The translations under genes were made by a program, and so were the position numbers. A DNA stretch of 64,000 nt from the NCBI GenBank assembly GCA_016748015.1, contig JAAOMT010000664.1, positions 1,487,892 to 1,551,891 on the forward strand, read 5' to 3'. Of this stretch, positions 8,037-47,297 are shown piece by piece; the first letter of the stretch is position 1, and every line of letters starts with the position of its first letter. The notes under the pieces are model-generated. The model ran no database searches and had not been told where the DNA came from. It saw nothing but the letters and a program-made list of their open reading frames with translations. The stretch comes from Geosiphon pyriformis uo1 (taxonomy: Eukaryota; Fungi; Glomeromycota).

Positions 8037-8160
8037 ATGGGCTGTATTTAATTATAATAATTGGTTTTAAATTTCATTGGATATTTTTAGATTTAATTAA
8101 TAAAATTTGTGTTTTTAGTTAAAATACAAATAACCAAAAACTTTTTGTTTCCTTAATTTT

Positions 8161-10299
8161 ATGACCATGACCAAAGCAAAAAGTAAAAAAGTTGCACCTA
8201 ATATCTGTTCTGAGATATCTAATAAAATTTCAACCAGAGGAGCTTTTTTTGTTGTAGAAACAACTAGGCAGAACATTTTAGAAGCCTTTTTTTTATCCAG
8301 TAATCATGAAAAGCTGTCTTTGATAGTCACTGAAGCAACTTCCTCATCTTTGGCTGGTTTCTCACCAATTAAAGTTCCCTCAAAGAGACACACTTGGGTT
8401 AGTCCCAATGTTGTCTCCACCCTTACTAAAAGCCCAAAAGTGTTTAATAATAGACTAGTTAACAAGCTGGTGTTTCCTTCCATAGCTTCAGCATCTGATG
8501 CTTCTAACACCTCCTCTTCAAAAAAAATGGTCAGAAAGACCAAAAGTTCAGAAAAGTGGGAGCAGTTACTTGTCTCTGCTATTGTTACACCGAATCTCTT
8601 TGTGGTTTCCAATAAGATCTTAGATAAGATTTCAGATAAGATCTCTATAGTATCATTCAGCACATCATCCAAGATGGGCCAAGATCAACTACTGGCTGTA
8701 TTACCAAATGTGGTGTCTTCTGGTAGATCATTGCCGGTTTTAGAAACAAAGCAATCTCTTCCTGTTGAGTCACCTGTTCTTGAAAACTGGGCTGACCAAA
8801 TGGAAACTGAATCATCTCCTTTTCTAGTTTCTGGTGCTACTTCTGGTGGTGCTTAGAAAACTATTATTAGTTGTCAAAGGTTTGCTGGGTGGGTGGCCTC
8901 TACTCTGGTGCTTGATGCTATTTTTAAGATCAAATTGGCTCATGTTAAGACTGTTTTTCAGTCAGTACATGGTTTTTTGGGTGCAAAATTAGTATTAAAA
9001 GACAATGTGAAGCTGTTTTGTGTGGAGTTTGCTTCTCAAGTGTCTTTGGAAGCTGTGTTTTTGGTTGAGCTTACAAGTTCTATACACTTGGCCACTCTTA
9101 AAATTGCCAAGTCTTTGGTAGTTTCTAAGTCTGGTTTCTCTTCTGCTGCTGTTGTATTGCATAATGTGCCTTTGGGTGTGTCTATTGCTGACATTAAGAC
9201 AGTTCTCAGTGTGTTTGGTAGTGTTACCCATATTGTATTAAAACCTGTTGGTATTTGGCAGTACATGGTGGTTTATTTTGAGAAATTAGACTCTGCTATG
9301 TCTGCTTTGAATCATTGGTCAGTCTTGGTAAGCAAGAATAATATTAAAATTCTCCCTCTGGTGAATCAAAATGAGACTATTTTGTCTCATGATAAGTTTA
9401 AGGCCAAGTTGGTCAATCTTCTTTCTGGATGCACAGCTTTTGAGATTAGTGATATGATTTCTCAAGTTGGTGGTCAGACATGTTTTATTCCTCATTTTCC
9501 TGAGTCTGGTCGTTATTCCTGGTTTGCTCTGATTACATTTGGTTTCCAAGCTAATTTGAACTCTGCTATTGTCAAAACTGATACACTAAGAAAATACTGT
9601 ATTTGGTAGGAAACTTCTGGTTGTTGGCATTGTTTCAAGTGTTAAGAGCTGAGCCATCTGACTGCAGACTGTAAGATTTCTCTGCCTCCCTCTCCCAAGT
9701 TTCTCAAGGTGTTTACATCATGCTTTGTTGGTTCTAAGTCTTATGCTAAGGCTTCTGCTTCTTTGGGCTCCTCTGAGTTTTTATCTCTGTTATCTCTTGT
9801 TTTTTCTCCAGTTGTTGTTGGTGATTTTTTGGTGCTGTTCTGTTTGTCTTCTTTGAAATTTGATTTAACTAAGCTTTCTGTTTTGGTTGAGTCTATTGAT
9901 AAGCTTATTGGCTCTTTGGTTACAACTTTTAAACAGTTTATTAATAGTGATTTAATTACAAGTAGTGCTCTTGGTCTTAGGATCAATGAGGTTTTGGTAC
10001 ATATGAGTTTCTTTAGTAGGACTGTTGGTAAGTTGGGGAGGGAAGTGGTTTCTTTGAAAAAAAAATGCTGCATAGAAAACATTGATATGTCTGGTAATTC
10101 AGAGCTTCTGCCTGTTGTGGATGATGAGATGTTTTCTAACTTAATGTCCCTTTGAGAACATAAGTCTGTTGATGTTAAAATGGATCCCTTTAAAACTGCT
10201 GAGTGGCTGGTTGGTTTGGTTTCTTACAGTGCAACTTTGTTTTCTGTTATTTAGAAGATGTTATCTCTGAGTAAGTTTTTTTCTGTAGCATTAACATAG
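8161..10299 (+). mobile_element. ORF1-only LINE derivative, copy 1 (~712 codons, RRM-like + CCHC), followed by a ~120 bp 3' tail to ~10420
   Basis: One reading frame interrupted only by stops. Clear homology to LINE ORF1 at 14208 (AVVLHNVPLG/AIVLKEIPVG, VGIWQ/VGLWQ, WSVL/WSIL, DKFKA/DKFRA). CFKC.ELSHLTADC knuckle. No ORF2 follows. Confidence 0.8.
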
Positions 10300-10559
10300 T
10301 GTGTTCTTGACTGGTCTAAGTGGCTGGTTATGTGTAAAAAACACATGATTAGTGCCTAGTTTAGATTGATTCTTCAATGTATTGTTCTAGGTAGCTTTTG
10401 GACCTTGTTCATTAAACTTTATTTTCAAAAACTTTGTATATGTAAAATAATTCATTTTATTTTAGGTTAAATTTTTTATTTTACTATTTTTTAGCTTTAG
10501 TGTAATATAATAATATTTTGTTTTTAATCTTAAATATAATTAGTTGGTTTAGTAGGTAA

Positions 10560-11100
10560 TTATTGTGTTTTTTTGTTATTTCTAAGAATTGCTAATATTG
10601 TTAATTGCTGTTCTATAATTGTTTTTTAGCATTTCTATAGCTGATTTGTTTTTTGGTATAAGATAACTTTTTTGATAATTGTTTTTGTTAAAAAAAAAAT
10701 ATTTCTAGTTTAATAAATAGTATAATATTTTTTTATAAATTAGTTTGAAAAAAGTGATTTAAGTAATATTTTGCTTCAATTTGGTATATAAATAATACTA
10801 AAGATATAAATAAGTCTTATTTTTGCATATTTTTATAACTTATTTTTGTTAAGATTTTATATAATGTTTAATTAAATTATTTTATCAATTTGTTGGTTTA
10901 AAAATAATATAAGAATAACAAAAGTCATTTTATTTTAAATTATTGGCTTAGTTTTATCAGAGTACTATTAACAAAATAAATTTTTTGATTAGATAATAAT
11001 TTTTTTGAACATTTATGTTAACAAATCAAATTTTGGTATATAAATTTAGTTATTGTTTTAGTATATACAGCTTAAATAGCTTGAATTTTTAGTTATTTAA
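10560..11100 (-). pseudogene. Very decayed Gypsy gag remnant
   Basis: Translation QIEAKYYLNHFFSN*FIKKL resembles the Q.ET.YY...ILDQFI.GL motif of the other gags. Confidence 0.4.
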
Positions 11101-11849
11101 TAAAATAGTCTATAACTACTACAATATATTAATTTTTTTAGAAGTAATTAATAAAGATTCAACCAAATTAATTTCAATTCTATTAAATAGATTTCAATTG
11201 AAATAAATTAAAGTGGTTTTGTTATTTTGGTTCTTTTTTTTTTGTTAACAAAAGTCACAATTGTAAATATATTTGAAAATATCTTTATATATTGTTAACT
11301 AATAATATAAATTAATTGTTTTTTCTAAAATAATATCTTTGTTGAAATGTTTTATTATTAAATTGAAGTATATATCAAACAAGATGTTTTTTTTTCAATA
11401 TTTTTTATAACTTATTGTAATATAGTATGATTTTAATATTCTTGTTAGTATAATTGTTTATTGTAAATAAAGTAGTTTTAAGTTTGTTTTTATATAACAC
11501 TTTGTTCTTATTAAAATAGTTTTTTTTTAAACTAAAATATTAACAAATATTAATATAATTATTAATAAATAATAGTATTTATTTAATAAAACTAAACTTA
11601 AGTCATTCTTAATAAACTGTTAATATTAATGTTTTTAGTTTTTTTTTATAATTTACTTTATAGAAAAATTGTTATAAATAAATACTTTATTTTGTATATA
11701 TTTTTTAAGTTGTAATTTGTTAATTAAATAAGTTTTTCATAATTAGTATATAGATTAAATAATTAATAAAGATAATATTTTCAGTTTTATATAGGCTAGT
11801 AAATAGTAAAACACTCTAAATATATAATATTGTATATTTTTTTAGTTGT

Positions 11850-13860
11850 ATTGATGCTTTTACTGACATAGATAATAGAATATTTCTTATTATTAAATTT
11901 AATTTAAGATAAAATTGTTTTAAGAACATTTTTTAATATATTAGTAACTATAATAAACTGTTTTTTAAAATTCAAATAGATTAATATTAGAGCTTTAATA
12001 AATTAATACTTAAAGTAATTAAAAATTTTTTGTTGTTTAGTTTTCTATATATATAATACATATTTTAAGAACAAATAATAAAAGAGTTTAGTAATATCAA
12101 AGAATTTTTTAATAAACCAATAGTAATATCTTATAAATTTCTATTAATTTATTCTTTAAATCATTTTTTATTATTATTGGTTATAAAAACAAAGCAAATT
12201 TTTTCTGTTGGATTATTTGTTTTTGGAAATTGAACTAACTAAATAGAAACCAAATCAATTTTTTTACTAGTTTCTGGTATTGTTATTAATAGTGCTTAGA
12301 AAATTATTACTAATCATTAAAGATTTGTTAAGTAAGTAATCTTTATTTTGATGTTTAATACAACTTTTAAGATTAAATTAGTTTATGTTAAAACTGTTTT
12401 TTAGTTTGTGTATAATTTTTTAGATATAAAATTGATATTAAAAAACAATATAAAGCTTTTTTATATAAAGTTTATTTCTTAAAGATTTTTAAAAACTGTT
12501 TTTTTGGTTGAATTTATAAGTTTTGTTTACTTAATTATTCTTAAAATTGCTAAATTTTTGGTGGTTTCTAAGACTAGTTCTTGTTTGTTACTATTGTACT
12601 ATATAATATGCTTTTGAATATGTTTGCTATTAACATTAAAATAGCACTTAGTAAGTTTGATAAGATTATCCATATTATGTTGAAGCTTACTAGTATTTAA
12701 TAATATATTGTTGTTTATTTCAAAAAGCTAGATACTCTTGTGTTTGTTTTGAATTATTGGTTAGTATTGATAAGTAAGAATAGTATTAAGATTCTCTCTT
12801 TAATAAATCAAAATAAGACTATTTTGTTTTGTAATAAATTTAAACCCAAGTTAGTTAATCTTTTTTCTGGCTATACTATCTTTAAGATTAGTAATATAAT
12901 CTTTTAAGTTAATAATCAAACATGTTTTATTCTTTACTTTCCTAATTTTAATTATTATTTCCAGTTTATTTTGATTATATTTGGATTTTAAACTAATTTG
13001 AATGCTATAATAATTAAGAGTAGTACATTAAAAAAGTATTATATTTAATAAAAAACTTCTAATTGTCAGTGCTGTTTTAAATATTAAAAAATAAATTATC
13101 TAACTGTAAACTATAAGATATTTTTATCTTTTTTTTCAAGATTTCTAAGGTGTTTACACTACATTTTATGAGTGCTAAATCTTATATTAAGACTTTTGTT
13201 TTTTTAAGCTTTCTTAAATTTTTACTTTTAATAATTTTTGTTTTTTCTTCTGTAATTGTTGATAATTTTTTGGTTTTCTTGTAGTTGACTTTTTTGGAAG
13301 CTAATTTGGCTAAATTGATTATATTGATTGAATTTATTATTAAGTCTATTGGTTTTTTAGTTATTGTGTTTAAACAATTTATTAAAAAAGATCTTGTTTT
13401 AAACAGTGTTTTTAGTTTTAAGATTAACAAAATTCTGGTGTATATAAATGCTTTTAGTAAAGCTGTTAATAAGTTAAAATAAGAGATAGTTACATTAAAA
13501 GCTAAATATAACTTTAAAAATATTGATATAATTGGTTCTTATATAAGTTTGTTTGCTATTAATAATAATATATTTTTTAATTTATTGTTACTTTGAAAAT
13601 ACAAATTCACCAATATTAAGATTAATGCCTTAAAAACTGCTAAATAACTAATTAAATTGGTTAGTAATAGTGTTATATTATTTGAAATTATTTAAAAAAT
13701 GTTTTTTTTGGGTAAATTTTCTTTTAAAATATTAATATAATATAACTTAAACTGGCTTAAGTAACTAATTATATATAAAAAATACATAAATCATATTTAG
13801 CATTAAAATACTTAGTTTGTTTTTAATTTCTAAATAGTAATTAGGTTATATTCATTAAAT
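11850..13860 (+). mobile_element. ORF1-only LINE derivative, copy 2 (heavily AT-mutated)
   Basis: Colinear with 8230-10420, including the post-stop tail (ctggcttaagtaact...ttcattaaa vs ctggtctaagtggct...ttcattaaa). Confidence 0.8.
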
Positions 13861-14131
13861 ATATAATAAAATAATAATATTATTATTATTTATTTTATAA
13901 TTATTATTTAATCAAATTAAATTTATATAAAAAGTTATTTTTAATTGGTTTATACTTTTATTTTTTAGAAATATATTTAATAATTTAAAAACTAATCAAT
14001 AATAATTTTAATTAAAAATTTTTTTTCAAAAAAACTTATATTAATATAATTAAGTTTTTAGTTAAAAATATTATTACTATTGTTTTTATTGTTTAATTAC
14101 TAAAAATAATATAAAATTTCTTTCTTTCCTT

Positions 14132-16781
14132 CATTCAAAATTCCCAAAAAAGAGTCAAAAAGTTTTTTTGAAAGAAGTTTTTTACCATTCAGTACAATAA
14201 ATCAAAATTGTTCTTTAATTACAAGGCCACTGTTGGTCTTGTTATTGCTGTTATAAAGAAAACTATTAAAGTTTCTGGTTCTGAGAGTGGTTTCAAGATG
14301 GTTGCATTGAGGAAGAAGAGGAAGGGAGGTGTATTGGCAGAAGATATTGATAATAGAGGAGTTGCTACTAAAGCTCTTGGTGCTTGTTCATGGGGTTCTG
14401 AAACAGGTAACACTACTGAGTTTGAGAGTATTGACATGGAGGAGGAGTGCTTGGTTGAAGAAACCAGTATTGACTATAGTGAGAGTGGTGCTTTTGTGGA
14501 AGGGGATCCTAATCAAATGCCAAAGAGTTTGCATGTAAAGACCAAAAAGATGTTAGAGAAGCCTCTGGGTGTGATTGATTATGGTATTGTCAATCCAAAT
14601 GATGATGTATTAGATGATTCCTTTCTTTTTCCGCCCCCTCTATCTATTAAACTGTCTGTTCAAGTGTCTGTTCACAAATCTTTTGCTTTAGATATTAATC
14701 TTGTAACCATTGCTGAGAAGTCTTCTCAGAAAAAATTGAGTTTTATCAGAAAAATTTTTTCAAATGTGAATGGTTTTGGGGGGGCTTCTACTTTCTCAAA
14801 ATTTGGTGAAATTATTTGTGTGACTTTCACTTTGGAAAAGACAATGATGGCTGCTGGGAAGTTGGCAAATGATCATGGTGTTGTGGTAAACACCAATCTC
14901 AAGTGCCCTGTAAACAACCATACAAATTGGGCAATTGTGTTAAAAGAAATTCCTGTAGGAACTTCTATTGAAGCTGTGTATACAGCTGTGTCTATATTTG
15001 AACAAATTAAGATGATTAAAATGCAATTGGTGGGTTTATGGCAAAAGATGATTGTCAAATTGGAAGATTAAAGTCAGGCTGATCTGTTGGCTGCTGAATG
15101 GTCGATCCTCATTGGTAAAGATGCAGTTCATGTGGCCAGGGCTGACATTGATAAACAGATATGAGATATTAATGATAAATTTAGGGCATTGCTCTACACT
15201 CTTCTTATGAAAACAATGGCTCATGATTTGTGGGATTTCATTGGTTCTGTGGGTGAGAAAACATGCTTGATTGAACACAACTCTGTCAATTATACTCACA
15301 CATAATGTGCTACTGTGTGTTTTGGTTCTGAAGATAACATGACTCAGACTGTGGCCAATACACCAGTTATAAAAGGCATTGGTCTTCACTGGTCACATTT
15401 GGTTACTCTTTTATGTTCTGTTTGCAATTCCCTAGGTCACTCGAGTTTGGTTTGTAAATTAGCTGGTGTGTCCTCTATTCCTAAGAGCAAAAGGACTTCT
15501 TTCTCAGCCCAGGATAAGTTTAGATTGGCCAAAATTTCTGAGAAAAAATCTGTGTCTGTTTCTAGGCCTCTAGCTTTTGATAGAAAAACTTGGACAGATA
15601 TGGTTGGCAAACCTCCTTTCTGTGTGCTTTTTGGTAATTCATTTTTACTTGGTTCCATCAATAGTGATAAACCTATCCTTCTTGTTGGTAGCATTTTAGA
15701 GATTCATCTAGTCAGTATTAAAAGCAGTCTTGTCAACCTTGCGGATCAGATTAGTGAGTTGACTAAGAGATTGGATTCACTCATACCAATGGTTTCCCAG
15801 CCTAATCCTAGATGTCAGCTGCTGGTGACCCCCTCTTCCCCCCATCTCAGATTCAAAAGGAGGATACAGTGATGGAAGTGGGTTTGAGTGAAGCCACTAA
15901 TGATGAAACTGCTACAATTGTGATTCTTTTGGCATCCCTTTATGTTGTTAAGTTGAAAAAAATGTTGAAAGAACTCTCCAAATCTGTTTTGAGCTTATTT
16001 GCTTACTTCGATGGTTTGGTTTTAGCAAGTAGTGTGTCTTCACAAACCCTTTCTCAATGAGTGAGCTGATCTGGAAAATTGCCACATGCAATGTTCGTGG
16101 AATGAACAATCCTGTAAAACAAGATGATGTCATTCATTGGCACAAGGACATGAACAATTTTATTTCTATTGTTATGGAGTCAAAGCTTAAAAGAAAGATA
16201 CAACTCTGGATAACCAACAGATTTGTTGGTGTCTGAGTGTTTACTTCTGGTTTGAATTCTGGTTATCTGGGTGCTGATATTGTAATTATTATGAACTTTT
16301 TTTTAGCTAGGCATGTATGTAAAGTCTCTAAAGTGCCGGGTTGGCTCTTATCCATTAAATTGCTTTTCAAAAACAAACTTTTGGTGTCAATTTTGGGACT
16401 CTATGCTGGTGCATTTGCGGCAGTTCGGTTTTCTTAGGCTGATGTGATCAACTCTCTTATTGCAAGGACTGTTAATGAGTCTTTTTTTATTGTTCTTGGC
16501 GGTGATTTTAATGAAGATGGGACTCATAGATGTGCTAGTTTCAAAAAATGCCTTGATTTGGGGCTGGTCAATTTTTTGTTTGGAAGCCATACCTTGAAGA
16601 TGCCTACTTGGGCAAATTCTAGAGGTGTTTGAAAAACAATTGATTTCATGTTCATGTCTCCTAATCTGGTTAATACGCTAGTGCATCATAATGTTTTGGA
16701 TGTCAGTGAGCATTTTGACACAAATCATCAGGCTGTTTCTGTGTCTTTGGGTTTGGGTAGACTTTTGGACACACAGTTGAA
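14132..16781 (+). mobile_element. L1-like LINE copy 1 (ORF1 + APE endonuclease), 3' part deleted
   Basis: ORF1 ~14208-16060 with CSVC...GH....C knuckle; ORF2 starts at 16057. Confidence 0.9.
16057..16781 (+). pseudogene. LINE ORF2 apurinic endonuclease domain
   Basis: IATCNVRG, ESKL, LGGDFN, TW.N....KTIDF, T(N/D)H motifs. Confidence 0.92.
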
Positions 16782-17506: not shown

Positions 17507-17509
17507 TTA

Positions 17510-17521
17510 TCCCCTCCTTTC
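17510..17521 (-). promoter_or_regulatory. Polypurine tract of B
   Basis: GAAAGGAGGGGA 3 nt upstream of the LTR TG. Confidence 0.85.
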
Positions 17522-17833
17522 AAGATTAAGCTCTGTCGAAATCAAAGTTAATTTTTTCATTGAATTCTAAGTTGCTATAGTAGTCTAATACTGTATTATT
17601 AACTTGTTGTTATAATTCTTGAAATTGTGAGTTGGTAAGTTGTCCAATACTGTTGGTTGTTATTATGTTTATGGTTGGATTCAATAATACTTTGTGACAA
17701 TTTTTCAAATGCTTTGAAAATTCCATAAACTGTTTTTTGAATTGAATGTACTGTTGGTTTTTCCAATAAAACTTTCTAATTGTTGGATTGTTGCTTTGTC
17801 AAATATTCTAATTAATAGATAGATTTATGATTT

Positions 17834-19100
17834 TTATGTGTGTCTCATTCTTAACAAACAATTAGCATTGGCATTTTTGGTACCTTCTTTGTATTTGATA
17901 ATATAATCATATAGTGCTAATATTTGTAACCATCTGGTATATTTTTTTTTTAGTACTTTTTTGTTATTTAATCAGATCAAACCTCTATGATCTGTGGTAA
18001 TATTAAAAGATTTGTACCAAAAATATGTGTCAAAGTAAATGCAACTCCAGACTACTGCTAAGCATTTCAGTCTGTGTGCTGCATAGTTTTGCTCTGCCAT
18101 ACTGAGACTTTTACTGATATAAACAATTACACATTCTCTTCCATTATCATCTTTTTGTGAAAGAATGGCTCCAAGTCCAGTTTCAGAGACATCTGTGGCC
18201 AAAATGAATTTTTTGTTGAAATCTGAATAGATCATTATTGGTGATTCAATGAGCTTTTGCCTAAGATACTTAAAAGCTTTTTGCTGTGTTTTAGTCCATT
18301 CAAATTTCACATTTTTGGATAGTAAATAATTAAAAAGTTTGGTAATGTTTGAAAAGTTTTCTACAAAGCAACAGTAGTAAGATACGAGTCCTAAAAAGCT
18401 TCTAACTTCTAAAACATTTTGAAGTACTGGAAAATTTTTCACTTTGTCTATTTTTGATAGATCTGGTTTTATTCCATCTTTTCCAACTATGTGTCCTAGA
18501 AATGCTAGCTCATTTTTTCCAAAGAAACATTTTTCTAAATTTAATTTAAGTCCAGCATGTCTTAATTTCTTAAAAACTTGTTGTAAATGTTGGAGATAAT
18601 TCGTGAATTTTGGCAAGAAAACATTTGTATCATCCAAGTAGACAACAACAGATTGCCACAGAATTCTGGAGTAAATTATGTTTATTAGTTTTTGGAATGT
18701 CGCAGGAGTATTTGTTAATCCAAATGGCATTACATTGAACTCATAATTGCCATTTTGTGTTGTGAATGCTGTTTTATGTCTGTCTTTTGGGTCCATTTCT
18801 ACTTGCCAATATTCACTGGTCAAGTCAAGTGTAGAAAACCATTTTGCTCCTCCAAAAATGTTGAAGATTTTGTCAATTAATGGTATTGGGTATGAATCTT
18901 TGGTTGTTTTGCTGTTTAGTTTGCGATAGTTGATGCAAAATCTAATTTTTCTGTTCTTTTTTCTTAATAAAACAACTGGTGAGAATCATAGGCTCATTGA
19001 TAGTTGAATTATTCTTTTTTCCAACATGCTTTGGACTTCTTCTCTGATAAAATTATGCTTCATTGGTGAGACATGGTAAGTGCATTGTTTTTCAGGTCTG
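17834..19100 (-). pseudogene. RT-RNase H of B
   Basis: KTAFTT, MPFGL, YLDD, ATD.S..GLGAIL, TDH; ends RMRHT*. Confidence 0.95.
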
Positions 19101-21942: not shown

Positions 21943-22925
21943 TGTTACTGGAGGTTTTTGGTCTCTTTTCTTGAATGTTGTTGATGTTGATTTGCTGTGA
22001 ATTCACATTTCTAGGAAGTAGTTGAACCTCCAGTAACTGAATTTATCTTCAAATTATTTCTTATAATTTGAACTGCTGGGCTTATAAGTGGAATGGCCAA
22101 TTCCGTACCAGTTGCTTTGTGTAGTTACATTGTAGTAAACATCAACTCTTTTCCAGGAATTGCTCATCTGGAAGCTCACTAAAAATGTGTAGTTACTTTG
22201 CTGTGAAAGTCAACTCTTCTATAGAAATCTTGTCTATAGGCTATCCTAATGATTATAATAAGAAAATAAAAGAAAGAAAATAAAAAAAATGTAAAAGAAA
22301 TGGAATTCTGTTAAGAGAAACGTTTTCTATTTAGGCCTGGAGTTACTAACAGTTTATTGAAATTGGTAGCTAATCAATTTCAAAACTGTTTAGTGGGAAT
22401 TGGTTAATTTTAAAAGGAAAATAATTAAGAATTTGATTTTTTGAATTATTTGATATTTATTTCGTTTTTGTGTATAAAAGATGATTTTAATTGTTAAATC
22501 TAAAGTAAGATACATTTTCTCAAAGAGAGAAGCTCTTTTTTTATACAACTTGTTGTAACACTATTCTATGAACTTGAACTTTGCTCTTTTCTACAATTTC
22601 ACTGAACTAAAGATACATTTTGGCGAACTACAAGTTATTTCTGTGAACTATTAGATATTTTGGTAAACTATCAATTATTTTGGTAAATTTCTACAAATTT
22701 TGGCAAACTTTTGAATGTTACATATTTTGGGGTATTGCATGATTAATCATTGCAATTAGGTTACATCTGTGTTATGTACAAATTGGATTATTAATTAAAT
22801 GATAATTTCGGACATTTTGCTAATATAATAAGTAATAATTTGAAACAATAATATATGCTAATTAATGATAGGAATTATAAAGATAATTTCATGCTAAATA
22901 ATATCTCTAATTTCGTCTTGTAACA
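21943..22925 (-). repeat. 3' LTR of C
   Basis: TG...CA; PPT GAGGAGAAAG at 22929-22938. Confidence 0.95.
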
Positions 22926-23613
22926 TAACTTTCTCCTCAAAACTGAGCTCCATCGAAGTCCAAGTACTGTCTGTAATTTCCAGATAATAATCCAAAATTA
23001 TTGAAGAAATTTGGTCTGAAAATTGTTGAAATTTCAGTTCTGTGAGCTTTCCAATGTATTAAATCTTCAAAGGCTGTAAAATTGGGTTTTGTAGGACGTT
23101 TTCACAGGTGTAGAATAGGTCATAAAGTCTAAGAGCAGCTCTTAGTTTATAATGACTATTTGTAGGCCTAGCTGTTGTCTTGAATTCATTGTGGAGTTGT
23201 TTTCAAATAGCTTTTTTTGTGAGGTTTGCTGCTATAAGCTCCTGTTGTTGTTCGTGAAGTGTTTTTCCAATGTAAAAATATCTATATATTGGAGTATAGT
23301 TGTAGTTTTCTTCATTAAGACACAGTTGAAGTTTTTGTTGAATAGTAGTATTTAGTGGAATACTAATAAGAGTGAGCATTAAGTTTTCTCTTAAAGCAAG
23401 CTTTAAAAGTTCTGGCAGGTGAATTCCAGAATAACTTCTTGTGTTCTTCTTATACGGGTGATATTTTTGTGCATTTGGGGCTAAATTTGTAACTAATTCT
23501 GTTTGGGTATAATTAATGTGGTTTCTAGTAACAGTAATGGATAATTCGGGTATTGTTTTTAAAGCTAACATTAGTTTTTGGGATAATTGTTGAATGTTTT
23601 GAGGAATAGTCAT
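22894..23613 (-). pseudogene. ORF3 of C: ~239 aa protein of unknown function downstream of integrase
   Basis: Single frame with 2 premature stops; homologs at 58803-59510, 63114-63812, 34604-35239 and 17520-17820. Confidence 0.8.
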
Positions 23614-23756
23614 TATAAAAAATTTGAAAATAAAGGAAAATTATTTTTGGTGTATGGGTTTTTATGTTATTTTTGTTTTGTTTTTGTGAGATTATTTCTA
23701 AATTATAAGGAGATAACTATAATAATAAATTTAAATTAAGTGTTTAAGTTGGGAGA

Positions 23757-25121
23757 TTATTCAATGACAAATATTGGTTCTAAATTTTGGGAAATATCTT
23801 TGGGATTGATTAAAGGGGAATGTGTACCAATTTGTGGAATTAATGGTTCAGAATTGTTTTTGGAATTATAGTGTTTCAAACAATCTCCATATGCAACTTT
23901 TGCTAGGATTTTGTTATCAAGTCTTAGCTTGTATGATCTATTGCCTAGGACTTCATGGATAAAGAATGGTCCATCTCATTTATTTTCAAATTTTTCACTC
24001 TATTGTTTTTCAGCTTTAATTCTGTATAAGAGAACTTTGTTTCCAATTTTAAATCCATTGGTAACTGGAGGCAATTTGTTGTCATGCCATTCTTTTTGTT
24101 GAGCTTGGGAGTATTTAATATGGGTGGCTGCTATTCGTTGTTTTCCTTCCAATGTGCTAAGCAGAGTGTAGGCTCTTTGTTATAGTGTTTCCTGAAAGTT
24201 GTTTTTATTAATTGGTTGTACTGGGTATGTTTTCATTATGAAACTAATTGGTAACATTGCTGTTCTTCCATAAGTTAAATCAAATGGTGTGTGTTTTGTG
24301 ATATTTTGTTTTAGTGTTCTATATGCTAGTAACACTAATAGAATAAAGAGATCCCATTCTTGCTCAAAATTGGTTGAGACTTTGGCTAATGATTTACACA
24401 ATGTTTTGTTGAAATGTTCTACAAATCCATTTGTTTGTGGATGGTAAGGCAAAGATAATGGTCTTTTAATATTAAATCGTCCACAAATTTCCTGGATTAA
24501 ATTGTTCATGAAATGTGTTCCTTGATTAGATAAAAGTTCTATTGGGCATTTATGTCTACAAATAATGTCTTCATAAATGAAGTTTGCTACTGATTTCGCA
24601 TTTGCTTGTTGAATGGCTCTGGCTTCAGGCCATTTGGTAAGATAGTCTACAGCTACTGCAATATAATGGTTTCCTTGGTTTGTGATAGGGAGTGGTCTGA
24701 CTAAATCGATACCAACTCGGTCAAAAGGCTGTCCAACTTTGATTGGGTTTAAAAGTTCTGTAGGGTGAGTTTCTCCTCTTCTTTGACAACTATCACAAAA
24801 CTTAACATATTTATGAATGTCTTTTCTCATTTAAGGCCAAAAATAATATTCTAGTGTTCTTTGAGTGGTGCTGTTTTTTCTTAGGTGTGCTGATGAACGG
24901 TCTGAGTGCATGTTATATAAAATGGTTTTTTTTTCATGTTCTTGTATTAATCTGAGTGGATTGTCTAGGTTTCTGAAATTTTGATAATAAATCATGTTAT
25001 TGTGTAAGAAGTATTGTTTGGCTTGTTGTTGTAACCAATGTTTTTTATCTGAGGACCAATCTGTTGGGATTGTTAATGTCTCCAAATATTGTTTAAGATT
25101 GTTGTAGTTTTCGGGGTTCAT
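23757..25121 (-). pseudogene. Integrase of C, stand-alone ORF (~454 aa), GPF motif, no chromodomain
   Basis: Own ATG; H..SAH, CDSC, GIDLV, SNQG, VEHFN, DGPFFI. Confidence 0.93.
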
Positions 25122-25169
25122 TGTTTGTTGTTTTGTTGTTAATTCAAATAGGTGTTTTTTTTTTATGTT

Positions 25170-26420
25170 TTAATCTTGCCTCATTTTTAAGAGACAATTA
25201 ACATTGGTGTGGAGTTTTCCTGGTTTGTAATGTATAATGTATTAGTAGTTGGCTAAAAATTCTGTCCATCAGATTTGTTTGGCATTCAGCTGAGTGTTTT
25301 TGTTTTGAAGCCATTTGAGTCTAATATTATCAGTGATAATATCGAATTCTTTGGGTCTGAGGTAAAGGTTGAAGTGATGTAGAGCCCAGATTACTGCTGC
25401 AGTTTCTAATTCTATTGCAGGGTAGTTCTTTTTAGCTAGTTTCAATGTTCTGCTAGCATAAGCAATTACTCGCTCATTTTCATTGTCATCTAACTATGAT
25501 AGGATGGCACCAAAGGCAGTATAAGAGGCATCTGTTGCTAACTGAAATCAGTTGCTAAAATCTGGGTAGGCAAGAATTGGAGCTGTGGTTAGTTTTTCTT
25601 TGAGAATTTCAAATGCATTTTGGTGTTCAGTAGTCTATTTGTATTTGACGTTTTTGGTGATAAGCTGGTTGAGAGGTTTTGCAATTTCTGAGAATCCTTT
25701 AATAAACTTCTAATAGTAGGAGGCTAACCCTATGAATTTTCTTAGTTCTGTAGTGTTTTGAGGAGTTTTGAAGTTTTTGACAGTACTGATTTTTCTAGGG
25801 TCCAGTTTGATTCCATCTTTACTAACAATGTGATTAAAAAAGACCAAACTCGTTTTTCCAAAGTAGCATTTTTCGATGTTTAGTTTCAATTCTGCTTTCC
25901 GTAATTGTTGAAAGACTTCTCACAGGTGTTTTAAGTGTAATTCAAAAGATGGTGAATAAACATTAGTATTATCGAGATAAACAACTACTGATTTCCAAAG
26001 GAGGTCTTTGTAAACAACATCCATGAGTCTTTGGAATGTTGTTGGTGCATTGCATAATCTGAAAGACATTACATTGAACTCGTAATTTTTTTTTTGAGTA
26101 GTGAATACTGTTTTGGGGCAATCTTTGGGATCCATGGCAACTTGCTAGTATTCACTTTCTAAATCTAATGTCAAAAAGTATTTGGACTTTCCAAGAGCAT
26201 CTAGCATGTCATCAATTTGGGAAAGAGGGTAGGCATCTCCAATGGTGATGCTATTGAGTTGTTGATAATCAACACAAAATTGTATCTTTCCATTTTTTTT
26301 TTAACTAAGACCACAGGTGAAGCCCATGGACTCATTGATAGTTGAATAAGCCCATTGTTGAGCATCCGTTGTATTTCTTTGTGGATAAATTGGTGACTTT
26401 CTGGAGCAACTCGGTAGGCT
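25170..26420 (-). pseudogene. RT-RNase H of C
   Basis: FCVDY, YLDN, ATDAS, ELET.AVIWAL; ends MRQD*. Confidence 0.93.
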
Positions 26421-26964
26421 TGCTGTCATCTTGGTTTGGCATCTCCTGTGTAGATTTGATGTTGAACCAAATCAGTTCTTTCTAAGTTATTGTTGTTTTT
26501 GGCAAAGATATTGGCAAATTCTGTAATTAGCTCTTTAAGCTGGTTTTGTTGTTGTGGTTCAAGTTGTCCCATGTTGATTCGAAATAGTTTTTCCATGACA
26601 ACATGGTAGTTTTCAGAGCTGAGGTTTGGGTTGATTTTTGGTAGTGAATATCTAATAATTCCAGAGAAATTGGAGACTGTTTGGGGTAATTCTTGTTGAA
26701 AAATATTACTGTGAATGATTCCAATTTCTAAGTTATTTAATAAAACTATGGGATAATTGTTAGGATTGTAAAAAGTAACTTGGACTTTCTTTGTTCCTTC
26801 TGAAATATAAATGTTTAGAATCGAGATATTATGTTCCAAGCAGATTCATTTATTGAACTCAAAAATTTGTTGGGTGGTTATTGGCTTTAAGCAGGTATAG
26901 ATTTCGGGGTGTTCTCCAAAAGGTAAAATAGTGATTAATTGGAGAAGGTGTAAAATCTGGTGAG

Positions 26965-27410
26965 ACTCATTCTGTTTATTGAGAGCTATGTTTACTGGAA
27001 CTGTGAATTGTCCAGTTGAACCAAAACCTTGGGTTCTTTTTTCACTTTTTCCCAATTGTTCTCTTTGATTGACTAATTGTAAACCCAAAATGTTGATTAA
27101 GGGTAAATAAATGGCTTGGACAATTTTCTCGGCATGTTTAATCTTAAATGGCTTGTTAGTTTTATTTTGGAGTATTACTGTTATATTACCAGTATATCTA
27201 GCATCAATTATTTCTCCTCTGATATTGATTCCTTTGCTTGCTAGAGAGGACTGGGAGGCAATTTGAACCATTGCTCCTGGTGGGATTTTGAGGGCAATTT
27301 TGAGGTTGATTTTTGTGAGAGATTTGGATTTAAGAACAAGAATATCCTTGTTTGAATATCTTAGGTCATATCCAGCATTAATTTCATGTGCTTTTTCAGG
27401 TTTTATTCTT
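26965..27410 (-). pseudogene. dUTPase domain of C
   Basis: AGYDL, ASQSSLA, IIDARY, KIVQ, RTQGFGSTG. Confidence 0.92.
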
Positions 27411-28399
27411 TGTCTGTTGTTGTTGAAGTATTTGAGTTGTAAGACAGGGTGATTTTCAATAAGATAGATGGGTATTGTTTCAATTTCTTCTGTTGCTTCA
27501 GGTTCTCCAAATTCAATTTTGTTTTTATTGTTTTCATTGGGCAGGGGAATGCTAAGAGCATAGTATTCAGGACACCATTGCTCATCGCAAAACATTATGT
27601 ATTTTTCACACAATTTAATGTTCATTTGCTTTAGCCATTGAGCTTGAGCTTCTTTAGTTGGGTAGGTGTAACTTGTGATTTGATGGTACACTTCTACTTT
27701 ATCTTCATAATTGTATCCAGCTAATTCCAAAATATATTCAATATATTCAGCTTCTTTCATTTAATGAACATCTTTTTTGGTAGCTCCATTAACCAATGCC
27801 ATTGCTAGGTTGAAAATAATTTCAGCATCATGGGGGTAGTGATAGAGTTTGTTGAGAGCACTGTTGTATGCTGCATTAAAGGATGTTCCTCTTTTGACTT
27901 TTTTTGAAATTGATAAAGCATATTGGCAGGTTTAATTGCAGACTCCTCCTCTCATTGCTACATCAATCCAATTGCATTCTTCTGGTAGCGTATCTCCACA
28001 AGTCAAACAAGGGGTGTTGTCCTATTTTCCACTTTTTTTTATTAGATAGCCCTATTGTTCTCTGTGACAAGCTTTGCAGTAATAACAAATATGATTTTCA
28101 TATTCTTCTTTAGGTAAAATGCAGGCTCCCATTGAGAAGAGTTTCTTGTGGCAGTCCTTGCATTTGAGTGGAATGTAAGGGTGTTGTTTTTTTGGTTGTG
28201 GTTTAGAATATGGGATGTTCTATTCAGGGATTTCTGGTTCCTCTGGATATAATTTTGTTGCAAAATACGTTTGCTCAGTTTCTTCAGCCCAGTTAGATGT
28301 TGATTCAAGAACCATAAATGTTTCGATTACAGGCTTTTCTTCTTCCTCTTCAAATTCGAAGACAGGAGCTTTCTCTGATTGTTTGTTGAATGTACCACA

Positions 28400-28800
28400 A
28401 GTAGCAGGTACTTGGGCATGTTGTCCTTGATAGAAGAGTTGTAATTCTTGGGTTTCCCAGTCTAATTTTGCATTGGCTTTTTGGAGCCAATCATTTTCAA
28501 CAAGAGTTTAATACTGGGGCGCGTTCATTATAAGAACTTTGACTGGAATGGTGATTCCATCAAGAGTGAATGGAAAATTGTCAATTTCTTCTATGGGAGT
28601 CTTTTTTATGCCATCAGCAGTAACAATTACTGTCTGAGCTGGTCAGTCAACATTTTTTTTAACTGTTGCATCAACTGGTAGGTGATAATGCTTCCGGTGG
28701 ATCCACTGTCTAGAATCAAGCAAATTGCCTTTCCTTCAACTTCTGCTTCAGTGTACATAGCAGTGATTGCTTTTTGTTTGTTGGCGGCTGCATTGCTGAG
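28400..28800 (-). pseudogene. Aspartic protease of C
   Basis: LILDSGSTGS catalytic motif. Confidence 0.9.
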
Positions 28801-29299
28801 CAGGAATAGTGACTCATTTGCTTCGAACTCAAAAAAGAATATATCTGAAAGGTTGGCGTTTTCAGCAATTCTGGCTGGTGGAATTGTGATAGGAGTATAG
28901 GAAAGATTTTGTTGTCATGCTGTAGCTCTACCTTCCAAAAGTGCAGTATGGTAAAAATCCTGTTCTTCTGGCATTGTTAAATAACTGGGTTGAGTGTAAT
29001 AGTGATTGGGTCTTGGTTGAGCGGAATTTCAGGGAACCAATTGGTTGTTCAAACTGATTCTATTGTTGTTTACTTGGTATCAGTTTTGTGGTGTGAATTG
29101 ATTTTGTGTAATCAATCTTTGAGCAGGTACTTGATAATGTTGTGTGGGTGGTTGTTGGTATTGCTGTTGGATTGGCTGTGGGTGGGCTGATAATAGTTAT
29201 TTTGGTATTGGGGTCTTAGTAGATAATAAGCTGGTGGTGGTGGTTGATAATAAGATTGCTGTAGTGGAAGATAACGTTAATTACTCCTATTTTGTTGGT

Positions 29300-30771
29300 C
29301 TCATTGTAGCTTTCTGCAATTTCTTTTCCAGTGGCCAGGAATTCTACAGTAATGGCAATTCTGAGACTGGTTATTAGAGGGTGATGTGAAGTTATTTTGA
29401 TTTTGTCTTTGGAGTAGTTGATATCTTTGGGGTTGCTGTTGTTGTTGGTTGGTGAAATAGTTTTCAACTTTCTTTGTGAGTTGGTCGATTTTCTCCTCAG
29501 CTGCTAAGCTGGTTTCTCCAATGGCCAAGTTTACAAGTTTTGTGCAATTGGTCTTTTCTATGGCCATTTCGTATCTCTTTGCATGCTGTATGGCAGAGTT
29601 TAAATCTTTTGGGACATGTGGGTGAACCTTTTTAATCAGTTTATCCTTTAGACCAGCAATAAATTGATCCAAGATTTGAACATCAGAATAATAATCATTA
29701 GTTTCAAGTTGGCAAATTTGTCTGAGAAGTTTGTTAAATTTCCCAATATAAGTCATAACAGATTCGGAGAGTTCTTGTTTAATATTGTGAAAATGATTTC
29801 GAAGAGTAATGGAGGTGTTGTTATTAGTGAATTGTTCTAAAAAGGCAGTTTTGAAAGCTGTCTAGTCATTAAAAGGGGTGGTCAAGTTTTCAAATTATTC
29901 ACCTGCTGTTTCTTTGAGAAAGTAGGGAATTATTCTTAACATTCTGGCAGCATTCTATTCATTTGCATCTCCAGCTTTAGTAACTTGGTCGAGCCATTCT
30001 TGGGAACTGGTCTCAATATCTTCTCCATTAAATTTGAAAATTTTTGCAATATAAGCTGTTATTTTGTTTTCTTCCTCATTATTTATTAATTACCTTTCTT
30101 CTTTGGATTCTACTTCTTCTTTAATGGTTTCAGAAACGTTTTTTTTGTTGGCTAATGTTTCAGAGTATTTGCTTGTGTTTTCTGCTAAATAGTCAAGAAG
30201 ATTGGTACTAGTCTGAAGGGTTTTTTGTTGTCTGGTGGGATTTCTGGGTAATGTATAATCTTCTAGTCTTGAAAATCGATTTAAAGATAAATTAGGAGTT
30301 TCTGCTTGTGCAAGTGAAGCTGGAAAAGGTGTAATAGTGAGTGGGAGTTTTGAACTGGTTCCTTGTTTAGGTGTTTGTAAGTGTTTGGCGGTTGTTTTTG
30401 GTAGTATTGGAGTATTTAGGGTGGTTTTTGAGTATTGCTTCAATTTTTGTTTGCCTTTGTTGCTTGTTTTTGTCTCTGATTCAAAGTCAAAAGAGTATTT
30501 AAACTGTACTGGGTAAGTAGGTAGCAAGTGTTTTACTGTTCAGGTCTTCTGTTTCCAATTGTGAATAGTGCACTAAATTATTTTAGAGGTTGCTTCTAAC
30601 TTCTGAAATGTTGTAGTTTCCAAAAAGATAATTGTTAATGCAGTTTTCAATATATTGGTATACTGATTTCTTGACAACTTCAATTCCGTCTGAAATGTTG
30701 AATTTTTGCTTGCAGTGTGTGTAAATTGACTGGTAATACTCTAGAGTTGCTGTGTTTGGTGTGGTTGCCAC
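29300..30771 (-). pseudogene. gag of C
   Basis: KFNGED...EWLD, ILDQFIAGL, CHYCRIPGHWKRNC knuckle. Confidence 0.88.
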
Positions 30772-30816: not shown

Positions 30817-31799
30817 TGTTACCAGAGGTTTTTGGTCTCTTTTCTTAAATGTTGTTGATGTTGATTTGCTGTGAATTCACGTTTCCAGGAAGTAGTTGAA
30901 CCTCCAGTAACTGAATTTATCTTCAAATTATTTCTTATAATTTGAACTGCTGGGCTTATAAGTGGAATGGCCAATTCCATGCCAGTTGCTTTGTGTAGTT
31001 ACGTTGTAGTAAACGTTAACTCTTTTCCAGGAATTACTCATCTGGAAGCTTACTAAAAATATGTAGTTACTTTGTTGTGAAAATCAACTTTTCTACAGGA
31101 ATCTTGTCTGTAGGCTACCCTAATGATTATAATAAGAAAATAAAAGAAAGAAAATAAAAGAAATGTAAAAGAAATAGAATTCTGTTAAGAAAAACATTTT
31201 CTATTTAGGCCTGGAGTCATTAACAGTTTATTGAAATTGGTAGCTAATCAATTTCAAAACTGTTTAGTAGGAATTGGTTAATTTCAAAAGGGAAATAATT
31301 AAGGATTTAATTTTTCAAATTATTTGATATTTATTTTGTTTTTGTATGTAAAGAATGATTCTAATTGTTAAATCTGAAGTAAGATACATTTTCTCAAAGA
31401 GAGAAGCTCTTCTTTTATACAATTTGTCGTAACACTATTCTATAAACTTGAACTTTGCTCTTTTCTACAATTTTGCTGAACTAAAGATATATTTCAGCGA
31501 ACTACAAGTTATTTCTGCAAACTATTAGATATTTCAGTGGACTATCAATTATTTTGGTGAATTTCTACAAATTTTGGCAAACTTTTGAATGTTACATATT
31601 TTGGGGTATTGCATGATTAATCATTGCAATTAGGTTATATCTGTGTTATGTACAAATTGGGTTATTAATTAAATGATAATTTCGGACATTTTGCTAATAT
31701 AATAAGTAATAATTTGTAATAATAATATATGCTAATTAATAATAGAAATTATAAAAATAATTTCATGTTAAATAATATCTCTAATTTTGTCTGGTAACA
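30817..31799 (-). repeat. 5' LTR of C
   Basis: Same length as the 3' LTR and colinear with it. Confidence 0.95.
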
Positions 31800-34366: not shown

Positions 34367-34603
34367 ATGGGACAACAAAATCTTAGCCAAAGCAATACAT
34401 GATGATCAACTAAAACCATATCACCAAATAGCATCATCATCTACCAATAACATTCCACAATTAGGAGTACAACAAATACTAGTCCAACCAGATGAGATTC
34501 CACGAGATCTGGAACCAATCATAATCATTGGACCAAACATGTAAAATCAAACAATAAAAGAGTATATAAAAACACAATATATGCGACAAAAGCAACCAAG
34601 AAA

Positions 34604-35239
34604 ATGGAAATACCAGATCATATTTACACCATAGCTCAGCAATTATTCTAGGCATTAAATTAACAACCATTAGACATGGAAATTATCATTAACAACCAAA
34701 CAATTTGCTATTCAAACACCAAAAAAAAGACAAAGAATACACCATATCAGTAAATACCAAAGAGTGATAAAAACTGGTCAAATAACATAATAGAAAAAGT
34801 AAGGAACACTTTTGGGAAAATACTTATTAGGGCATTAACAGAAAAACTCACAAAAGAGAATTGAAAGCAATAGACAGAACAACTTCCAATATAATACTGT
34901 TACTACTAGTTAGGTCGAAAGTTGAATATTCAGGAGTTTTATATTGACAAATCCAAAAAAGTATTTAACCAAAACATAATACAGCAAATTGAAGAATTTA
35001 TTGGAAAAAAAACAAACTTAATACTATATGTGAGAACAATTTATCGACTGCACAACATATTTCAGAACTATCCAGAAATACTGTTACACTCTAACATAGA
35101 AACTATAACTATTAATCAATAGGGAAGAATAAATAATGTACAAATAGAAGACATGAAAAATAAAGTCAAACAAACAATATTAGAAAAAGAAGTATTAGAG
35201 CTAATTCAAAATGAAGATTTCGATAGAGCTCAATATTAA
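34604..35239 (+). pseudogene. ORF3 of A2, divergent homolog of ORF3 of C
   Basis: MEIPDHIYTIAQQLF*AL aligns to MTIPQNIQQLSQKLMLAL; YY*LGRKL to YFYIGKTL; RLHNIF to RLYDLF. Confidence 0.65.
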
Positions 35240-35253
35240 AAAGGAGGAGATAA

Positions 35254-36361
35254 TGTTACTCATAAAAAGAAAACAGATATAGAGAAATAGTAGACCAATA
35301 AGCAAATAGTATATAGCACATGAGCACATTGCTCAGCAATGTAGAGCAATAACAGAAATTATGACACATTGCTTAGCAATGTGGAGCGATATTAGAAAAT
35401 TAGGGCACATTACTTAGCAATATGAGTATTGCTCAAGAAATCATAGCACATTGCTTGGGAATATGAGCAATCTCGTAGAACATCAATTATATATATATAG
35501 CAGTAGTGTTAGAAGTAGAAAAAGCAGAATTCTTCTATTAGAGACCTCTTAGTTTAAATTTCATCTAAGCAACTTTCTATTCACAAATATTAATAAATAA
35601 TTATTCACTATTTCAACCCACTCTCTACTATCAACACTTCATGTTAATAGTAATTAATACTTAACCATACTAGATCAATAGCTCTTAATTACAGTTATTG
35701 ATGGATTCTAACTTGTGTATTGTCTTGACTTATTTCTTTATTTTCTTCTTTTATTTTCTTTTTTTTGATTGTATTTGTTGTATACTAACTGATTAAAGAT
35801 TAAAGCACTGAGTAATTAATGTTACAGATAGCCTGGTAAAAGACCCAGAAATAAGGATAAAATTATATATATATTAACAGATAGCTTATCAAAAAGACAC
35901 GACTGCTAAAATAAACTGGCCACCAAGCTGAAGACAGAAATTGGGAACACCACTCACCAACCAACTACTTCATCATTGAATCTCTGTCTATTATACAAAG
36001 GACACCAAGGAAATTAAGAAAAAAACAAGGGACAATGAATTATATTGAATACACTGCTTTTATTTTCTTTATACCATTACATCATGCTAAAATTAGAACA
36101 AAGAGAATATTCATATTCTCTGCTAAATTAAACTTAAAAATCCTTCTAACCTTAACTCCCCTTCTAAACAATAATATTAGCACAGAATTACCGAGGATAT
36201 AAAACTTGCGAATTAAGTTTTTTATTCTCCGCCCTCTTAATCAAAACCTTCAGATAAAGACAACATACCAATATTACCACCATCAGCCATCAGAGTAGAT
36301 ACTGAGCACCAAGTTACAGATATGTTATTTGATTTGAGACCCCAAATAATCACTTGTAACA
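35254..36361 (+). repeat. 3' LTR of A2 (type A, 1108 bp)
   Basis: TGTTA...TAACA; matches 7120-8036 apart from a ~230 bp indel. Confidence 0.93.
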
Positions 36362-37159
36362 TCATATACAAAAATTTGAATTATGTAAATTAAATATATA
36401 AATACCAAAAAAACAAGAAAAAAAAGCTTAAAACACTTTTAATATAGATTTTTTAAACAAAATTCTGAAACTTTTACAACAATTATTCGAAATAATTTAA
36501 CAATTCACAATATTAATAAAAATTACAATTGATAAAACAAAGATATAATATAAAAATACAAACAAAAAAAAGGCAAATAAGAATTTAACTAAAACTGAAT
36601 ATTCTTAATTTTATGAAAGATCAAAGAAAAAAAAATATATGTGTATTCAAATATTTGAAAAAATTAAAAAAGCTTTAAACAGCTTAGCTATAGAACTTAA
36701 TACTAAAAAAAAGATCCTTAAAGTCTTTAAAATATAAAAAAAACTTTTATTAACAAATTGTTTTTTTAAAATTAGTAAAAAACTAAACTTATAAACATTA
36801 TATATTGATAATAACAAATAAATATTCAATAAAAAAGCTCTTAAACAATTAGAAAAATTTGATAAAAAAAACAATTTAATGTTATATTACAAAACAATAT
36901 ACCAATTATATTTAGCATTTAAATATTGTTTAATTATACTATTAAACAATTTATTAAAGACTATTATAGTTAATAACATAAAACAAGTAATAAATTTTTA
37001 ATTTAAAAAACTACAAAAAATAATATTTAACACAATAATTAAACACTATATCAAAAAAATAATTTTTAAAAATACATATGATTTTACAAAAGCTTAATTT
37101 TAAAAAAAAATTATTATTCAAGTAAAAAAAACCAACCTAAAATTATTAAAAAATGTAAT

Positions 37160-41763: not shown

Positions 41764-42034
41764 TTGCGCAAAAATTAGTAATATTTAACAGGTGAAAGTT
41801 GTATAATTTTTTTGAAGGTGGCTTGGCTGTCAGTATTTTTTGATCTATCAGCTATATCAACTTCCAACGTCTTAAGTTATCAATTATATCTCATGGTAGG
41901 AAACAGCATTAATAAAACGAACATATCGTAAAGAAAGAGCTGACTTAATTTACTCCCTTCTTGCGGGTGTTACTCCTCAAAAATTGCCGTCATCCGCCAT
42001 CGTGCGGAGGTTTGCCCTTCTGGGTTTGCCAAAA

Positions 42035-43926: not shown

Positions 43927-44244
43927 AACTTAATATTTCGAAACTTTGCTTCTCGACCGTTGGACTCCCCTGATATAACCATCAAGATATCCCTATCATT
44001 ACACCGCATTCTTTCTATAGAATATACAAAATTATAAATCTGTCCCACATTAATTATCGTGGAACGCAAGTATATATATGTATATATTATTCAAAGAAAT
44101 ATTTTGCTTGTATAAAGTTAATCTGAAGAAATTTCCGCGAGTGATTCTTATCAAGTGAAGATAATAACTTCATTACATCATTTTAGAATTATTAAACACA
44201 AGGAATATTTTATCTCGCATTTTCATATTATCGAATTTTGTAAA

Positions 44245-45796: not shown

Positions 45797-45922
45797 GTTT
45801 TATCCTCAAAATTAAACTCAAATTTCTTGAATTCAAACTTATAAAAATTTGATAGTGATCCTCATTACACATAATTTCATTGGGAATTTCCTAATCTACA
45901 TTTCTTTTTTGGTCGTCGTGGA

Positions 45923-47121: not shown

Positions 47122-47297
47122 TGTAAATTTCTACAGAAAAGGGTTAAATAGGCGATTTCTATTTATTTTTCCTATGTTTATACAAAACCTCAAAAATGCA
47201 ATCGAGGAAGTATTGAATAAATATTTCTAAAACAATGAATTTTTTCGTTTTAAACTTTTTACTTGATCGATCAAGAAAGTATATAATTAAAATGACT

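Follow-up and report, generated by a model that had tools for sequence, protein, structure and literature searches.

How does a long terminal repeat (LTR) retrotransposon produce its integrase when the frame for its other enzymes stops at the end of RNase H? The question was raised by a 64,000-nt stretch of Geosiphon pyriformis uo1 (Glomeromycota; GCA_016748015.1, JAAOMT010000664.1:1,487,892-1,551,891, forward strand), hereafter the window, which holds four Ty3/gypsy LTR retrotransposons, A, B, C and D, all on the minus strand (coordinates of their parts refer to that strand). A first-pass annotation had proposed that a conserved stop cuts integrase loose from Pol, leaving it as a separate reading frame with its own start. 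This held in relatives too, as seen in the integrase alignment, the trees and the junctions, and an integrase of this kind cannot arise by cleavage of Gag-Pol. We are nearly certain that a separate integrase gene with its own conserved ATG, behind a Gag-Pol that ends after RNase H, is the architecture of a lineage; how this gene may be expressed is weighed below.

The stop codon and spacer in the window

Pfam was run on the window frames with stops read through as X. Upstream of the stop it matched gag, protease (A and B), dUTPase, reverse transcriptase (RT) and RNase H, and downstream of it the integrase H2C2 and core domains in A, C and D. The order capsid-protease-RT-RNase H-integrase, as in Ty3, was recovered by Pfam in A, C, D and an intact metagenomic relative, L001, with the protease itself matched in A, B and L001 and not in C. 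By sequence reading, the elements have direct LTRs with TG...CA ends, a primer-binding site (PBS) and a polypurine tract (PPT); the LTRs examined run from TGTTAC to TAACA or a form of it that differs by one base.

Element C, which is inserted within B, is complete. Its 5' LTR (30817-31799; TGTTAC...GTAACA, followed by a PBS-like TTTGGTG) is 93% identical over 983 nt to its 3' LTR (21943-22925), just before which lies the PPT. The decayed gag-(protease)-dUTPase-RT-RNase H frame, given here from the capsid match on (25173-29864, the gag start being approximate), matches Retrotrans_gag, dUTPase, RVT_1 and RT_RNaseH, and the protease is placed from its position and from the Pfam matches seen in A and B. 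This frame ends at TAA 25170-25172, followed by a 48-nt A-rich spacer (25122-25169) that contains no AG or ATG and is unpaired in the minimum-energy fold, and then by a stand-alone integrase open reading frame (ORF; 23736-25121) that begins at ATG 25121 and has a YPYY-type N-terminus, H2C2, a DDE core, GPY/F and decay stops. In A, a single gag-protease-dUTPase-RT-RNase H frame with point stops (845-6265; Pfam) ends at TAA 842-844 and is followed by a 30-nt in-frame spacer (812-841) with one more in-frame TAA inside, and by an integrase ORF from ATG 811 that is cut by the window edge (1-811). Element D, split by another, C-like element, has its Pol terminator TAA at 61104-61106, a 58-nt spacer in the +1 frame (61046-61103) and an integrase frame (59663-61045) with ATA at the aligned Met position, a likely decayed ATG; in a related family, four copies out of 29 also have ATA in place of ATG. 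In B (TAA at 17834-17836), the 3' LTR begins 327 nt past the stop, and the integrase-less stretch in between (17507-17833) holds the frameshifted tail of a third ORF (ORF3; 39% over 41 aa to C ORF3, E 1e-8, and 9/17 to the A-family ORF3) and then the PPT, likely the product of an internal deletion. B as an integrase-free design was rejected because the broken ORF3 tail is retained.

All four RT-RNase H frames end with TAA four codons past the motif that closes RNase H (A, IRQI*; B, MRHT*; C and D, MRQD*). The annotated positions of these TAA codons stood, but A has IR where MR had been given for all. The 48- and 58-nt spacers of C and D, the ATG of C, the ATA of D and the absence of AG from the C spacer likewise stood, but A has a spacer of 30 rather than 20 nt and, in place of the ATA that had been described, a real ATG (811-809) aligned to position 1 of the integrase profile. 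C had been taken as the sole in-frame case among three different frames; A and C are both in frame and D alone is shifted, giving two frames. The argument that decay should not strike the same codon four times is sound as arithmetic (~3e-5), but the four copies group as one clade (support 99-100) and thus carry one inherited stop rather than the results of four events. Premature stops make up 25 of the 1555 RT-RNase H codons in the window (1.6%), and six of these 25 are TAA. With a single clade and two of three gaps in frame, the window alone cannot exclude an old ancestral CAA-to-TAA change.

The scarcity of G in the spacers (3 G in 136 nt), remarked on in the first-pass annotation, is usual for non-coding DNA of these elements and was rejected as a special signal: the stretch between integrase and ORF3 in C has 2 G in 142 nt, and the spacers of relatives are 12-22% G. 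Coding DNA has a G content of 13-14%, and 3% of all 48-nt windows in C hold at most one G. With only 15% T, the window gaps also do not resemble a splice acceptor tract. A conserved upstream ORF at the ATG of the MR motif was rejected because relatives carry L or I there. In contigs from X1, a sequencing run of this same genome, no indel at ≥5% was seen over 24900-25500, and the stop and the ATG were unhit among 40 of 83 substitution sites; 13 X1 contigs match up to 25170 and then run on in a different spacer.

Junctions and integrases in relatives

Of 78 metagenome loci retrieved, 37 include both the end of RNase H and, no more than 700 nt away, the start of integrase; each of these 37 has a stop in between, 1-34 codons past the RNase H motif. 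These loci represent three families. L001 is intact, with a 1229-codon Gag-protease-RT-RNase H frame, TAA, 97 nt (+1), a 420-aa integrase, 93 nt and a third ORF; L002/L003 have TAG and then 48 nt in frame; and the remaining 34 are decayed copies of one family, in 29 of which the integrase start was located (25 ATG, 4 ATA). The gap of this large family is 136 nt in 18 of the 34 copies, and it is in frame in two of the 29 and out of frame in 27. Thus, the combination of CAA at this codon and a spacer divisible by three in all families was not found, given the TAA and 97 nt of L001 and the 136-nt gaps. Beyond these families, L082 has a long-tailed Pol and a 308-nt gap, and in L036 the Pol stop is followed by 41 nt and a 263-aa ORF that runs into integrase through an ATGA stop/start overlap; L059 (2-595), like L036 (181-969), carries an extra ORF between Pol and integrase with this overlap. 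The inserted ORF gave sub-threshold thymidylate-kinase/AAA (nucleotide-kinase) matches.

Overall, the gaps of relatives span 36-308 nt, occur in all three frames and are unrelated in sequence, and this variability excludes general readthrough or frameshifting. The gaps of A, C, D, L002 and L003 are 50-67% A and largely unpaired where folded. An A is present at -3 of the start in A, C, L001, L002, L003, L082 and L006, and not in L035, L036 or L059. No GT position was common to ten RNase H ends, and a shared splice donor was rejected for this reason.

A length-limited protein search with the C integrase returned 768 matches of 259-826 aa, of which the best 120 were analysed; these are 392-453 aa long. 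In 102 of these 120, Met stands in one alignment column, and 95 have M-[DEN]-x3-Y; gene callers begin proteins at Met by default, which counts against reading anything into the Met itself and leaves only its fixed position informative. No chromodomain match was found in these integrases by Pfam. The named relatives are Rhizophagus, from the integrase search, and Cetraspora; the lineage is likely one of mycorrhizal-type fungi, with a host range beyond these two inferred. The longer RT-RNase H relatives (single-domain matches at 47-53% identity) are mostly integrase-less Gag-Pols of up to 1849 aa, and such Gag-Pols end mostly 1-11 residues past NADxLSR, the end of RNase H that we take to carry its last catalytic Asp, or bear tails of 76-405 residues. 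The solved chain of Ty3 RT (4OL8) ends three residues past the same motif, so the stop probably sits about where the RT/integrase protease cut would be. Since intact relatives end at the same place, the stop is, on sequence grounds, an inherited trait of the lineage and not decay.

Phylogeny of reverse transcriptase and integrase

An RT-RNase H tree was made with FastTree from 234 rows, comprising those that cover at least 280 profile positions and the four window copies. All four window copies lie in a 69-row clade (Shimodaira-Hasegawa (SH) support 97; 94 in a 37-row IQ-TREE run) that also contains L001, L039, L071, 27 of 27 short-tailed and 26 of 31 long-tailed integrase-less Pols, one truncated row and eight fused rows. 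The 165 rows outside it are 142 fused, 11 integrase-upstream and five long-tailed rows and seven loci. In this tree the clade nests among fused gypsy-type Pols; Ty3 RT was the best match of RT-RNase H in the PDB (E 5e-92), and Ty3-G Gag-Pol was also among the best matches. Five of the eight fused rows are NCBI gene models that join RT-RNase H to integrase. Four of these (P0156, P0160, P0241 and P0242) have junctions at three distinct positions, each of which removes the NADxLSR end of RNase H, and the fifth, P0157, hardly differs from P0156 in the RT tree. These models were rejected as evidence of fusion because, with differing joins and the RNase H end lost, they look like predicted introns. 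The other three, P0186, P0203 and P0254, are apparently genuine fusions that keep the RNase H end; the RT of P0186 lies amid split RTs and its integrase at the base of the clade.

The integrase tree had 167 rows, including 40 of the 120 stand-alone matches (every third) and four loci. All 44 stand-alone rows and three window copies fell into one 53-row clade (SH 96), whose subgroups mirror those of the RT tree (for example, P0241 with P0154 and P0004, and L001 with the long-tail group). Because the integrase tree tracks the RT tree, integrase is likely native to these elements. Scans of viral contigs gave no member of the clade, and L082 and L083 were the sole close matches in a scan of prokaryote genomes. 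Both lie in contigs of bacterial metagenome-assembled genomes and are likely fungal contamination. The long-tail group (P0159-P0231) consists of 26 integrase-less Gag-Pols, and many of the tails after RNase H are acidic or Cys-rich; the three scanned had no Pfam match.

Routes to integrase expression

Our preferred reading, held at about even odds, is that integrase is translated by ribosomes that restart after Gag-Pol termination on the full-length RNA. The stop would have replaced the RT/integrase protease site, as its position at the end of mature Ty3 RT suggests, and ribosomes that have terminated would either traverse a short A-rich gap free of structure, a route proposed for LINE-1 ORF2, or resume at an overlapping ATGA. 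With restart inefficient, little integrase would be made for each single-frame Gag-Pol, and integrase would reach the particle or the cDNA via RNA or protein contacts rather than covalent linkage. The ATGA overlaps before integrase in L036 and L059, the short unpaired gaps, the C spacer without AG and the lack of a common GT speak for restart. Several observations weigh against it. Restart sits poorly with long gaps such as the 136 nt seen in 18 of the 34 large-family copies or the 308 nt of L082, and the gap contains ATGs in L002/L003, in L082 and in each of the 29 large-family copies whose start was located. Known viral restart, in the accessible text of PMC5972666, needs close stop-start spacing (≤29 nt in pneumoviruses) and upstream signals, and minimum-energy folds of ten junctions, made with no shuffle control, had no common structure. 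ORF3 downstream would need another expression route, and P0186, P0203 and P0254, which lie inside the RT clade, indicate that the split is apparently not universal there. Sub-lineages may differ in mechanism.

Some of these difficulties would be removed if integrase were translated from its own subgenomic RNA, either transcribed from an internal promoter in the RNase H region or the gap, or joined to the 5' leader by splicing in the manner of foamy virus pol, with the A-rich gap as an ordinary 5' leader. We regard this as possible but doubtful. It accounts for the free length and frame of the gaps, for their upstream ATGs, for inserted ORFs (L036) and for ORF3; moreover, the 136-nt family has YAG ~24 nt before the ATG in 12 long-gap rows examined, and foamy virus Pol is made from a spliced RNA and packaged apart from Gag, according to the accessible text of PMC3705302. 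Conversely, AG is absent from the C gap and from L025 (one of two 36-nt variants), and the ATGA overlaps would have no obvious purpose. By either restart or subgenomic RNA, integrase would not be covalently tied to Gag and would have to enter the particle on its own. Ribosomes might also enter internally at the A-rich gap, independently of upstream translation, as A-rich internal ribosome entry occurs in yeast and the gaps of A, C, D, L002 and L003 are A-rich and, where folded, largely unpaired; however, gaps of 30-58 nt are short, gap composition is not conserved in relatives and the overlap forms have no gap at all, which makes this route very improbable. That integrase is still fused to Gag-Pol through stop readthrough, frameshifting or a stop-removing intron would solve packaging and agrees with the in-frame gaps of A, C, L002/L003 and two of 29 large-family copies, as well as with the five NCBI gene models that join RT-RNase H to integrase. 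We consider it quite unlikely, given that intact L001 (+1) and 27 of the 29 copies are out of frame with unrelated gap sequences, that four of the models join at three places and lose the NADxLSR end that Ty3 RT keeps, that no donor is shared, and that a conserved N-terminal Met would be needless.

It is scarcely credible that the stop is CAA-to-TAA decay of a fused pol, or that a Ginger/GIN transposase was captured as the integrase. Decay stops abound in the window, which is depleted in CpG (0.35), but open relatives stop at the same place, and the decay reading is largely refuted by these relatives. Kinship with Ginger/GIN, suggested in the first-pass annotation, has in its favour that a ~400-aa enzyme with the YPYY-type, H2C2, DDE and GPY/F layout of Ginger1 stands as its own ORF in elements with TGTNR ends and a candidate 4-bp duplication, as in Ginger1/GIN1 (PMC2836005, accessible text). 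In that text (Bao et al.), Ginger1 has inverted repeats of 40-270 bp, CCGG/CCGT targets, an OTU or Ulp1 tail and no RT, none of which fits here, and YPYY, TGTNR ends and short duplications are also found in Athila/Tat-related Gypsy elements; the shared layout is common to Athila/Tat-related integrases and thus not diagnostic of Ginger1. No inverted repeat >26 nt was found in C or D, which have direct LTRs instead, and no OTU or Ulp1 domain was found in the three intact integrases scanned or among precomputed domains of the best 120 of 768 integrases. A CCGG/CCGT target duplication was not seen at the two insertions examined. The 4-bp duplication that had been described reads CTGT/CTGT at a solo B-family LTR (54798-55640, -) and ACGC/GTGC at C, where the two sides are equal only if two CpG-type changes are allowed. 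The elements are LTR elements whose integrase subgroups mirror the RT subgroups, in trees that contained no Ginger sequences, and the proposed kinship was not upheld.

Overall, we suggest tentatively, with slightly less than even confidence, that an old and diverse LTR lineage of Glomeromycota is truly polycistronic, with the RT/integrase cut swapped for a stop and a start, coupled reinitiation on genomic RNA, an integrase unlinked to Gag and a junction reused for extra genes such as the kinase-like ORF.

ORF3 and other features of the window

Downstream of integrase lies ORF3, which encodes ~239 aa, has an ATG of its own and stops at the edge of the 3' LTR or slightly within it (22894-23613, 58809-59510 and 63102-63812, all -). 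The C copy (22894-23613) extends ~30 nt into the 3' LTR; the 136 aa of it used as a query match an open protein of 239 aa (P0373) at 79% identity, and the D homolog (58809-59510) is 62% identical to that of C. Twenty matches were found in a representative library, most of them 50-91% identical. ORF3 had no Pfam match, and C ORF3 did not align with the ORF3 of L001; Atlas matches were helix-turn-helix-like (0.90-0.91, with 125-154 shared features), a weak lead only. The gap before ORF3 ends T-rich (L082:2482-2612; window 23614-23735, -), with 61% T and no AG in L082, unlike the A-rich gaps between Pol and integrase. Just upstream of the PPT, a motif GA(C/T)TT(C/T)GA..GAGCT, possibly a cis signal, occurs in B, C, A-family and E copies despite unrelated LTRs (17507-17560, 22926-22970, 35201-35254 and 63146-63190).

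Between the protease and dUTPase of A, B and C there is a Cys-rich insertion several hundred codons long (27000-29400 and 3000-4200, -), and RT is preceded by a weak Spuma_A9PTase match. At 34371-36362 (+), the 5' LTR of B is adjoined by the 3'-terminal part of an A-family element (integrase tail, ORF3 and LTR), and a further piece of integrase, heavily decayed, is found near 11 kb (10781-11406, -). Repeated ORFs at 8134-10346 and 12179-16776 (+), one with a weak RRM match, are possibly LINE ORF1-like, and one of them adjoins the cut end of the B 3' LTR. A host gene island at 40900-50600 contains exons of actin-related, Sir2 and EF-hand/NDH2 NADH dehydrogenase genes.

Comparison with known systems

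These elements resemble Ty3/gypsy elements (Metaviridae, such as yeast Ty3) in their LTRs, PBS, PPT, Gag-protease-RT-RNase H-integrase order and best PDB match, but they differ in that integrase lies outside Pol, contrary to the canonical layout. Judged from sequence, this lineage-wide departure is real. In the accessible text of PMC3248453, integrase is described as a domain of pol. The fungal element PosPlaTy3-5 has a dUTPase between protease and RT (PMC2864245, accessible text), as do the elements studied here. An LTR element with integrase as its own ORF was not described in the accessible portions of PMC13468544, PMC3248453, bioRxiv 2021.03.30.436303, PMC2864245, PMC5911963, PMC4427930 or PMC6431247, and no prior description was found in the full-text literature, a scope that leaves out subscription papers, repeat databases and supplements; the supplement tables of PMC2864245 and PMC3248453 could bear on this. 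If the polycistronic reading is true, this would be an expression and packaging strategy of which we found no description in any LTR retroelement. How integrase is packaged and dosed is usually explained by its fusion to Gag by way of Pol, and a lineage lacking such fusion shows that this coupling can be dispensed with. The lineage would also offer a natural system for ribosome access to an ORF behind one of 1200-1900 codons and for how free integrase finds the particle or the cDNA. In practice, transposable-element pipelines will score intact elements as broken, and gene predictors appear to invent introns at the junction.

Precedents for restart, in the accessible text of PMC5972666, are the 63-nt gap between ORF1 and ORF2 of LINE-1, the stop/start overlap of silkworm SART1, the fungal victoriviruses and the hypoviruses. 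As in LINE-1 and SART1, an enzyme ORF here follows a long ORF across a gap or an overlap; the spacing, set beside that of LINE-1, SART1 and victoriviruses, is an ATGA overlap in L036/L059, 30-58 nt in the window and 97-308 nt in others. LINE-1 and SART1 differ in being non-LTR elements without capsid or integrase, and restart would be the route here only as we read the junctions. Foamy virus Pol offers another parallel, being produced separately from Gag and having to be packaged by a route of its own; according to the accessible text of PMC3705302, the whole protease-RT-integrase precursor is made separately there, from a spliced RNA, and is packaged only as a precursor, whereas in the Geosiphon elements and their relatives integrase alone stands apart.

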